Shown: piece after piece, positions 9,001 through 12,000 of the stretch
How the letters are laid out: each line of letters opens with the position of its first letter
How positions within the stretch are numbered: position 1 is the first letter of the stretch
Source of the DNA: a virus
Taxonomy: Duplodnaviria; Heunggongvirae; Uroviricota; Caudoviricetes
Length of the DNA: 13,285 nt
Strand: one strand, 5' to 3'
IMG/VR virus record: IMGVR_UViG_2609459822_000007
Position numbers: made by a program

Positions 9001-12000
9001 TTTCGCCATTTTTGAACCTGTCATATTGCCCCCAGCATGGTGGTGACCATCGCCATCAATGGACCAGCCAGATCCGGGTCCACTCGAAACATCGACACAA
9101 TGCCTTCACTCATCTCCTTCAGTTTCTGGTGGCGTGGTGCGTTGAGAATGACCGCCTGCTTTGCCTCACTGAGTTCCTTTTCCATTTCAGCCAGCCGAGC
9201 CATGAAGCTATCCTGCTCAACCAGGTGGCCGCGATATTCCAGCGGTAGTACCGCCAGAATTGCCGGGGTCAGTTCACGCACGTTATTTCGGTATTTTTCA
9301 GAATCGAATTTGTTATCGAGGAAGCGGAACAGCTTCTGGCGTGCACGACTGACATCATCAGGAAAATCGATGGTGCCGCCGCCCTGTGCTCGATACTCAT
9401 TCACAATGAGTGCGGCAACTACATCCTGATTATCTTCAGCAGACCAAGCGCGGACGGCATCACGGATTTTTTCGTGGCCTGGCACCTGTTTTGTTTGAGA
9501 ACGATTTATCACCGCAGTCGGGCTAAATCCGCTAGTCTGTTGGTATGTAAGTGGTTGCATAATTGACTCCTTTAGTTTGAATTGACTGTTAAGTTGATTG
9601 CTTATTGTTAAAGAGCGTGAAATGGAAATTTAAGCTGCGTTCTTTTCGGTGTGTGGAAACAACTTCGGAAGATCCGGGCGAATCTGGTATGCCTTCACTA
9701 CTCCACCAGTAGCCGTAACAATGCTGCCGACATGTTCAGGGGATACCTTTGCTTTGTTGTGAAGCCACTTATAGACGGCCTGCTGTGAAACTTCGCAAGC
9801 AGCGCCCAGTTTCTTTTGTGAACCAACGATATTGATCGCTGTTTTGATAGCTGGGTTCATAACAACCTCCGTGGTTAATTTGAATCAAGATTAAAACCAT
9901 GGTTGTTTTTAGTCAACAACCATTTTCGTTTGATGGAATAAAACCTTGGTTGTACATTTGGACTATGAAAACAACACTCTCAGAAAGACTTAAAGAAGCC
10001 AGATTAGCGCGAGGCCTTACACAAAAGGCGCTTGGGGATTTGGTCGGGGTTAGCCAAGCTGCTATTCAGAAAATCGAAACAGGGAAAGCTAATCAAACAA
10101 CTAAAATCGTGGAGATCGCGAACGCTTTGGGTGTGCGCGCAGAATGGTTATCTTCTGGCGTTGGAAATATGTCAGACAGTACAGTGCAACCAATACAATC
10201 AACTGTCAGCCATTCCAAATACTTCAAGATTGACGTTCTTGATATAGAAGTCAGTGCTGGGCCGGGAGTCATCAACCGTGAGTTTGTAGAAGTTCTACGC
10301 TCGGTTGAGTACTCGTTTGACGATGCTCGTCATATGTTCGATGGTAGGAAGGCGGAAAATATCCGCATCATTAACGTGCGTGGTGACAGCATGTCAGGAA
10401 CGATCGAACCAGGTGATCTGCTGTTCGTTGATATCACAGTTAAATCTTTCGACGGTGATGGTATCTATGCGTTTCTGTACGACGACACAGCCCATGTAAA
10501 GCGCCTGCAAATGATGAAGGATAAGCTGCTGGTCATCTCTGATAACAAAAGCTACTCACCGTGGGACCCGATCGAGAAAGACGAGATGAACCGGGTGTTC
10601 ATCTTCGGTAAGGTTATTGGGAGCATGCCGCAGACATATAGAAAGCATGGGTAGTACCAATTAAAAATTATCAACTGGGCATTGTGCTCATTCAGTAAAG
10701 AACTAATTCCTATCTTTGCTCTAGGTAGTAATATTAAGCCACCGCAATAATATCTTTACCTAACGGCGTAAGAATCCCGGTCACCGTGCCGGGTTTTCTT
10801 TTGCCCTCCCCTCATCACACACACCGTTAAAAAAACCACCATAACCTCGCTTCAGTTATCGCTATGCGATTCAAGTCACAAAATAAATCCATCCTAAATA
10901 CAACCAGTTATATCTAAAACAACCAATAAAACAACTTTTGTTGTTGACGGTAAAACAACTATAGTTTTAAATAAGTTCATCGCAACAACACAACGATACG
11001 GCAACCACCTGATTCACCGTTGCGATGACCGCTTAGATCCGCAGTTTGAATTTCAGCAGGCTTCGGGGAGTGCGAGGGGTGAAACGGACGCGTGAACGTC
11101 GGTGTGACCAGCTGAAATCAACTCAACATTTCATACCTTAGTCGCTTCAACGAGGCGACTTAGTTATGACAACCGGCGGCCATCCACCGCCTGAATACGC
11201 GCAGAAGTCTCTATATGTTCAGCAGCCCAGCTTACGGGCAGGAGTTTTTATGGTTCATCAACATTACGGAACGCAGACCGTTAATCGAGGTGCGGTCATG
11301 CCAGGAATGCTGGTCAAACACAAAGATGGTACCTGGACTGCATCAGCTAATTTACGCGGACGGCTTTATCTGCATCGCGGCATCGAGCGCACTTATACCC
11401 GTGATTTGCTCGTGGAAGTTTTTCTCGACGGACGCGGTAACGGCCTGAATCGCTAATCCCCTTTCCTGTTTTCCTAATCAGCCTGGCATTTCGCGGGCGA
11501 TATTTTCACAGCCATTTTCAGGAGTTCAGCCATGAACGCTTATTACATTCAGGATCGTCTTGAGGCTCAGAGCTGGGCGCGTCACTACCAGCAGATCGCC
11601 CGTGAAGAGAAAGAGGCAGAACTGGCAGACGACATGGAAAAAGGCCTGCCCCAGCACCTGTTTGAATCGCTATGCATCGATCATTTGCAACGCCACGGGG
11701 CCAGCAAAAAAGCCATTACCCGTGCGTTTGATGACGATGTTGGGTTTCAGGAGCGCATGGCAGAACACATCCGGTACATGGTTGAAACCATTGCTCACCA
11801 CCAGGTTGATATTGATTCAGAGGTATAAAACGGATGAGTACAGCACTCGCAACGCTGGCAGGGAAGCTGGCTGAACGTGTCGGCATGGATTCTGTCGACC
11901 CACAGGAACTGATCACCACTCTTCGCCAGACGGCATTTAAAGGTGATGCCAGCGATGCGCAGTTCATCGCATTGCTGATCGTCGCCAACCAGTACGGCCT

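Follow-up and report, generated by a model that had tools for sequence, protein, structure and literature searches.

What is encoded by the open reading frame (ORF) that stands directly 5' of a lambda-like gam gene, in the place where lambda carries kil and cIII, when its product resembles neither? The question is raised by positions 11166 to 11456 of a virus record of the Caudoviricetes (IMG/VR IMGVR_UViG_2609459822_000007), which was analysed as one stretch of 13,285 nucleotides, hereafter the window. An earlier note, made from the sequence alone, had described here an unassigned ORF with two possible starts, giving 96 or 68 aa, together with a 77-aa ORF overlapping it in another frame, and had proposed an uncharacterised host-interaction or anti-defence protein. 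The ORF, both starts and the overlapping ORF are all present, and the ORF does occupy the lambda kil/cIII slot. Our results indicate that the shorter reading is very probably kil, from a lambdoid prophage of the DLP12 kind, coding for an FtsZ-directed Kil of the KilR family (Rac type). The features of the locus are collected in Table 1.

Table 1. Features of the kil locus and its surroundings, in coordinates of the window.
Feature	Position	Strand	Remarks
PL promoter and cI operators	10928..10972	+	TTGACG 10944-10949, 17-nt spacer, TTAAAT 10967-10972
Two cI operators overlapping PL	10928-10945, 10952-10969		motif AAAACAACnnnnGTTkTT (18 bp)
kil 5' leader, ~270 nt	10980..11249	+	~97% conserved in relatives with different operators
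RNA hairpin in the kil leader	11131..11169	+	core 9-bp stem, 11140-11148 with 11152-11160; loop AAC
Upstream in-frame extension, 28 codons	11166..11249	+	most likely untranslated 5' leader
Overlapping ORF, other frame	11215..11448	+	77 aa; not a gene
kil (Rac KilR-type), conserved CDS	11250..11456	+	68 aa plus stop; ATG 11250, TAA 11456
kil-gam spacer, lambda-like	11457..11531	+	75 nt; ~95% identity to lambda, with ~3 mismatches and 1 gap
gam (98-aa GamS form)	11532..11828	+	PGAP 'host-nuclease inhibitor Gam family protein'; next gene of the operon

The family searches gave a consistent answer. The 68-aa product matched PHROG_294, "Kil protein for bacterial septation inhibition", with E=1.7e-37 (E=1.6e-38 for the 96-aa form), and the NCBIfam model NF008465/PRK11354, "FtsZ inhibitor protein", with E=3.6e-17 over profile positions 1-67 of 73. 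In BLASTP it was 36% identical to the Rac KilR of E. coli K-12 (b1352) over 61 aa (E=9e-13), the identity being 34-37% over the comparisons made, and a profile of 32 sequences was aligned with KilR by hhalign with a probability of 97.6% (E=3.4e-12). Pfam-A returned no family for the 96-aa or the 68-aa variant because the copy used was an older one, without the PF27398 model; PF27398.1 is precomputed on 120 of the 120 homologues among the matches listed, including ones 100% identical across the aligned stretch. Many homologues among the matches listed bear the name "cell division inhibitor protein". Moreover, a RefSeq E. coli genome with a 100% DNA match to the locus has a PGAP CDS of 207 nt at this place, whose 68-aa product, WP_000233577.1, is named "phage encoded cell division inhibitor protein". 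With PHROG, NCBIfam, KilR, Pfam-homologue and PGAP assignments all at hand, it was wrong to call the ORF unassigned: the gene is already known, being named in RefSeq and PHROGs and having homologues in a Pfam family, and since public annotation already names it, it is not a novel gene. A clear match to a known Kil family, which the earlier note had set against its own proposal, is thus what was found, the family being that of KilR. What survives of that proposal is an early-left gene of host interaction; for anti-defence there was nothing in support, and the PADLOC models gave 0 families at E<=1 with the kil product. No paper on the 68-aa subfamily came up in our searches of the literature, which covered the RefSeq accession, the name of the product and the PhiR phages.

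Note that the product is not a plain KilR. Its NF008465 score of 62.1 bits lies under the curated cutoff of 92, and it should therefore be placed in a sister subfamily rather than taken as the Rac KilR equivalog. This subfamily is common to the phages HK225, mEp237 and phi80 and to phages of Klebsiella, Cronobacter and Enterobacter, and identity to the kil product is 84-85% in HK225/mEp237, 81% in RCIP0034, 78% in KO-TP1, 56% in phiES15 and 40% in phi80. Residues H5, G7, R13, V16, P18, G19, H24, T28, S32, A33, Y40, L59 and G63 are invariant in the alignment of the family. Among complete E. coli genomes the locus is abundant, being at least 80% covered in 2149 of 5426 (~40%).

Comparison with the relatives left little doubt about the frame that is read. 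At 73% nucleotide identity to HK225, the differences fall 9/8/38 on the three codon positions, with 30 synonymous and 11 non-synonymous codons; the corresponding counts by position are 9/7/38 for RCIP0034 and 15/10/37 for KO-TP1, and synonymous changes exceed non-synonymous ones ~2- to 3-fold against HK225, RCIP0034 and KO-TP1. The kil reading frame is clearly under purifying selection and is more than a chance ORF. This bears directly on another possibility, that the 77-aa ORF is a second gene or that the region is non-coding. That ORF, which the earlier note had pointed out, is open in the window, and the PhiR34_1 record annotates it as a hypothetical protein, but its frame is not conserved, carrying 4, 1, 3 and 4 stops in HK225, RCIP0034, KO-TP1 and phiES15, respectively. 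The third-position bias of the substitutions is consistent only with the kil frame, and searches of Pfam, NCBIfam and PHROGs with the 77-aa product gave no significant match. From the stops in the relatives together with the absence of a family match we conclude that this ORF is not a gene, and the probability left to a second gene or to a non-coding region is practically negligible.

The start codon could be assigned with nearly the same firmness. The earlier note had taken the upstream ATG at 11166 as the primary start, with the internal ATG at 11250 as a variant. In favour of a 96-aa protein, the frame is open from 11142, the RAST-type annotation of PhiR5_1 calls a 291-nt 'Kil', and clusters of 96-aa gene calls are present in the protein database. 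Against it, the NF008465 and PHROG_294 profiles both begin at Met29 of the longer form, which is the ATG at 11250, and that codon has a Shine-Dalgarno sequence, AGGAG, 5 nt ahead of it; by comparison, ATG 11166 and its GAGG are buried within a hairpin of -17 kcal/mol. The annotated genes of the homologues are short as well: 207 nt in HK225, RCIP0034, KO-TP1 (Klebsiella) and phiES15 (Cronobacter) and 210 nt for phi80 kil, so that the five phage homologues measure 68-69 aa, Rac KilR having 73 aa. In all five of these phages (HK225, RCIP0034, KO-TP1, phiES15 and phi80) the in-frame sequence 5' of kil is closed within 3-11 codons. Where gene callers have added N-terminal extensions to homologues, these are of at least three mutually unrelated sequence types, and all of them end exactly at the conserved MVHQHYGTQ. 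In PhiR30_1, one extra nucleotide between the ATGs shifts the extension into another frame, and Kil residues 1-67 remain 100% identical. PGAP also chooses the 68-aa start. The real product is thus most likely the 68-aa form, the 28-residue extension not being conserved; a true 96-aa product would be very improbable.

Several phage records in GenBank are mistaken at this locus. That of PhiR34_1 carries the wrong-frame 77-aa call ('hypothetical protein'), a mis-call, and that of PhiR30_1 an out-of-frame ORF labelled Kil. The PhiR47_2 record has a 128-aa "Kil", which results from a change, T11139C, that abolishes an upstream stop.

The hairpin that covers the upstream ATG is real, and stronger than first described: the earlier note had given it a 6-bp stem at 11140-11160, whereas the core stem has 9 bp and the outer pairs also take in ATG 11166. 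Over 46 nt it folds with -17.1 kcal/mol (z=-5.35), a stability that none of 200 shuffled sequences reached. It is kept in 7 of the 7 loci compared that have the same leader, among which variation is low and the sole change in the hairpin, A11158G, turns a U-A pair into U-G. It has no U-tract and is therefore not an intrinsic terminator. The conservation of the leader given in Table 1 comes from the alignment of 7 loci; the leader also contains two inverted repeats (10977-10986/11019-11028 and 11050-11060/11108-11118), and as a whole it folds no more stably than its shuffles (z=-0.48). Rfam gave nothing in the whole window at the gathering threshold, nor in the leader at E<=1. No similarity was seen between the leader and the 5' UTR of Rac kilR or its KilS sRNA, nor between the leader and the nun/put region of HK022; of that phage, only the C-terminal domain of cI finds a match here. 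An Arg-rich ORF of 31 aa within the leader (11046..11141) had nothing in PHROGs, and in Pfam its DUF5729 match (E=0.18) is at chance level. The leader with its stable hairpin would probably serve transcript stability or processing, and not coding.

The surroundings of the gene tell how it would be expressed. The + strand of the window runs in the direction of the leftward operon of lambda, and the genes are arranged in the order cro (on the - strand), cI (+, with its end at 10654) and, after an intergenic gap, kil, gam, bet and exo. The operator motif that overlaps PL occurs also at OR, between cro and cI (9892-9910), and the total of 5 matches compares with an expectation of 0.46. The PL hexamers were read by eye from the sequence; a consensus promoter scan did not list PL. 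In relatives with other immunity types and operators, homology to the window starts at ~10980, the predicted start of transcription, and kil should therefore be the first gene on the PL transcript, after the ~270-nt leader. Between PL and kil there is no N, no nut-like annotation and no cIII. No other ORF comes before the gene on the 3' side of PL and its cI operators, and gam-bet-exo follows; kil lies, in other words, behind a promoter controlled by cI operators. The homologues of HK225, KO-TP1, phiES15 and phi80 are likewise found in the early-left region, mostly just 5' of gam-like or recombination genes. As a separate observation, the phages that carry the 270-nt leader have no N in the interval from PL to kil.

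On its 3' side the gene runs straight into lambda. Homology to lambda is 97.4% from 11450 to the end of the window (gam, bet and exo) and resumes a few bases ahead of the end of the kil stop codon, which places the breakpoint just within the 3' end of the kil ORF. The stop codon itself aligns with that of lambda kil. The near-identity of the Red genes to lambda and the likeness of the 75 nt before gam, both given in the earlier note, were borne out, and so was its statement that the ORF resembles none of lambda Kil, CIII and N. No alignment was obtained with the 47-aa lambda Kil at E<=100 (BLASTP) or with lambda CIII (54 aa), and the only match to lambda N (133 aa) was a chance one of 7 residues (E=4.8). 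In E. coli genomes with a lambda-type kil, similarity to the locus is limited to the 3' 86 bases, that is the spacer and the start of gam. Read from these alignments, a Rac-type Kil is swapped into the lambda kil slot, which appears as an analogous replacement and not as homology. Note that phage D2 is a recombinant, in which a truncated KilR-type ORF is followed by a lambda-type kil.

Set beside the Kil systems already described, the gene combines features of several. With lambda Kil (NP_040619) it shares the exact slot, the aligned stop codons and the spacer to gam, and differs in having no detectable sequence similarity; the published target of lambda Kil is FtsZ, as is that of KilR (PMC12482147, PMC5793797). 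With Rac KilR it shares homology across the whole beta core, a similar size (68 vs 73 aa), a predicted beta core with short unstructured ends, and a place in the early-left operon, 3' of a repressor-controlled promoter. Unlike in Rac, the leader here holds no KilS sRNA-like sequence, and the downstream neighbours are a lambda-type gam-bet-exo instead of ydaE-racC-recET. The Kil proteins of phi80 (PHI80_42) and HK225/mEp237 belong to the same subfamily, share its LDG/LNG-x-GN-x-L tail, and are all annotated as Kil or FtsZ inhibitor. In phi80 and HK225, N or hypothetical genes stand between PL and kil, whereas here kil comes first after PL.

The predicted structure also resembles that of KilR. 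AF2 performed poorly on the single 68-aa sequence (pLDDT 54.6), and with an alignment of 32 sequences it gave a model of pLDDT 82.7 with six beta strands (residues 8-12, 20-24, 27-35, 38-43, 46-50 and 54-59), leaving a low-confidence N-terminus (1-7) and a non-regular C-terminal tail (60-68). KilR has been described from an AlphaFold3 prediction as a beta core with unstructured ends of 7 aa at the N-terminus and 12 aa at the C-terminus (PMC12482147). As a model, therefore, Kil matches the published prediction for KilR, with an all-beta core and short terminal tails. A sequence-profile search of the PDB gave no match, and Foldseek against the PDB returned none that was significant; the best, to the SH3-like N-terminal domain of eIF5A (E=0.25), does no more than hint at a small beta-barrel. 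The best match among predicted viral structures was to a protein of 73 aa from a Pantoea phage (TM 0.81, rmsd 1.2, 34% identity).

The published work on KilR suggests what this protein would do. At low dose KilR disrupts Z-rings and causes filamentation, and at high dose the cells round up and MreB is mislocalised; the growth defect is relieved by overproduction of FtsZ and not by that of MreBCD (PMC12482147). Toxicity of KilR persists in ftsA* delta-zipA cells, whereas lambda Kil needs ZipA (PMC12482147), and the OxyS-NusG pathway has likewise been found to arrest division in a way that depends on KilR (PMC5793797). Because of the homology to KilR and the published action of KilR, we propose that Kil would halt division of the host through FtsZ. 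By analogy, then, its most likely function is a block of Z-ring assembly, possibly extended to MreB, upon derepression of PL. Inactivation of cI would let PL fire, and translation of kil would begin at ATG 11250 with its AGGAG; the product would disrupt assembly of the FtsZ ring, and the cell would stop dividing and filament during prophage induction, as with Rac KilR. Like KilR, the product may affect MreB as well when its dose is high.

The C-terminal tail is where the two proteins part. That of KilR is essential, and its length matters (PMC12482147). The tail of Kil has 9 residues (DGRGNGLNR) against 12 in KilR (GRDGLPVKAESW), with one Gly in common, and the subfamily, phi80 and phiES15 among it, keeps the pattern LDG-x-GNGL-x-x (with N replacing D in some proteins). 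Taken with the 34-37% identity and the sub-cutoff NF008465 score, this differing tail suggests that the subfamily may differ from KilR in strength or in MreB-related activity. One could go further and suppose that Kil kept the ancestry and fold of KilR and acquired another target or role, be it FtsZ only, MreB, another cytoskeletal or envelope protein, or anti-defence. A tail that is conserved in the subfamily, unlike that of KilR and 3 residues shorter, would fit such a change, as would the low NF008465 score, and loss of the last 3 residues of KilR separates filamentation from rounding (PMC12482147). Against it, the beta core is conserved with KilR along its full length, the position in the operon equals that of lambda Kil and of other Kil genes, PADLOC gave no match, and there is no positive pointer to another target. 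We consider a changed target or role improbable and keep to FtsZ-directed division inhibition as the reading. A broader proposal, in which the range of targets would differ from that of KilR (for example FtsZ without MreB and rounding, or another partner) and the leader, the hairpin and the Arg-rich mini-ORF would form a control element of kil, has a somewhat better chance, and is still unlikely.

As a discovery the finding carries little weight: the gene already has a name and occurs in ~40% of complete E. coli genomes. What it does provide is a corrected kil locus, with the start at ATG 11250 and a product of 68 aa, at a place where several of the phage records deposited have calls that are over-long or in the wrong frame. 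It also offers a clean case of what would be non-homologous functional replacement, in which two unrelated FtsZ inhibitors occupy the same mosaic junction and end at the same stop before gam.

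The prophage to which the window belongs is DLP12-like. In L005, a near-identical genome copy (99.5% identity), the part matching about 3000 to 7000 of the window carries the host-type genes emrE, ybcK (recombinase), ybcL, ybcM and ybcN, together with rusA in frameshifted form and an antiterminator of the Q family.

An 18-bp dyad-symmetric motif, AAAACAACnnnnGTTkTT, was observed 5 times, compared to 0.46 expected; its sites include the divergent region between cro and cI as well as the early-left promoter, PL (see table). These sites are presumably the cI operators of the window's immunity type. 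N, nut and cIII are all absent from the PL-to-kil interval of the window. The 270-nt kil leader (10980..11249) is approximately 97% conserved, including in phages with different operators, and contains two long inverted repeats. Comparison of this leader with Rfam and with HK022 put found no similarity.

Features of the early-left region and of the corresponding loci in related phages
Feature	Genome	Coordinates	Strand	Remark
AAAACAACnnnnGTTkTT	window	9892..9910		cro/cI divergent region
AAAACAACnnnnGTTkTT, two copies	window	10928..10945, 10952..10969		at PL
cI stop to PL	window	10655..10943		lambda equivalent: rexAB
Inverted repeat 1	window	10977-10986/11019-11028		kil leader
Inverted repeat 2	window	11050-11060/11108-11118		kil leader
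Arg-rich ORF, 31 aa	window	11046..11141	+	kil leader; TTG start
gam	window	11532..11828		98 aa, GamS-length
Call at kil locus	PhiR34_1 (L001)	3561-3794		wrong-frame 77-aa ORF
Call at kil locus	PhiR47_2 (L002)	3377-3763		128-aa 'Kil'
68-aa kil locus	PhiR30_1 (L014)	1805-2011		true gene, without annotation
KilR-type and lambda-type kil in tandem	Escherichia phage D2 (L015)	1968-2260		

The Arg-rich ORF of the leader (MNFSRLRGVRGVKRTRERRCDQLKSTQHFIP) is located within the PL-to-kil interval, which itself has no N gene. It shares its reading frame with the 96-aa ORF, the over-extended version of kil, and its stop (TAG, 11139-11141) coincides with the base of the 9-bp hairpin. Little variation was seen at this ORF among the aligned relatives. 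Its KRTRERR stretch resembles the arginine-rich motif of the N-type antiterminators. A PHROG search with the ORF gave zero matches, and a Pfam search gave nothing significant, the sole match (DUF5729, E=0.18) being at chance level.

The window can encode Gam solely in its 98-aa form. Lambda Gam has an annotated start giving 138 aa; in the window, the equivalent position, about 120 nt upstream, would fall inside the non-homologous kil sequence.

The kil gene is inconsistently annotated across the deposited phage records. The long call in PhiR47_2 arose because T11139C removes the upstream stop, and in PhiR30_1 the 'Kil' label sits on an out-of-frame upstream ORF. In D2, a kil of the lambda type (144 nt) comes immediately after a truncated KilR-type ORF (129 nt); there is therefore a recombination junction within the kil slot.

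Finally, while rexAB fills the cI-to-PL slot in lambda, that of the window has no genes, and is empty save for one intrinsic terminator (10776-10793 plus a T-run). Among close relatives this slot carries differing two-gene cassettes: GevT/GevA in PhiR47_2, HipA/'HipD' in PhiR5_1, and further gene pairs in Lambda_4C10, D2 and PhiR30_1. The cI-to-PL slot looks like a variable hotspot for toxin-antitoxin or defence genes.
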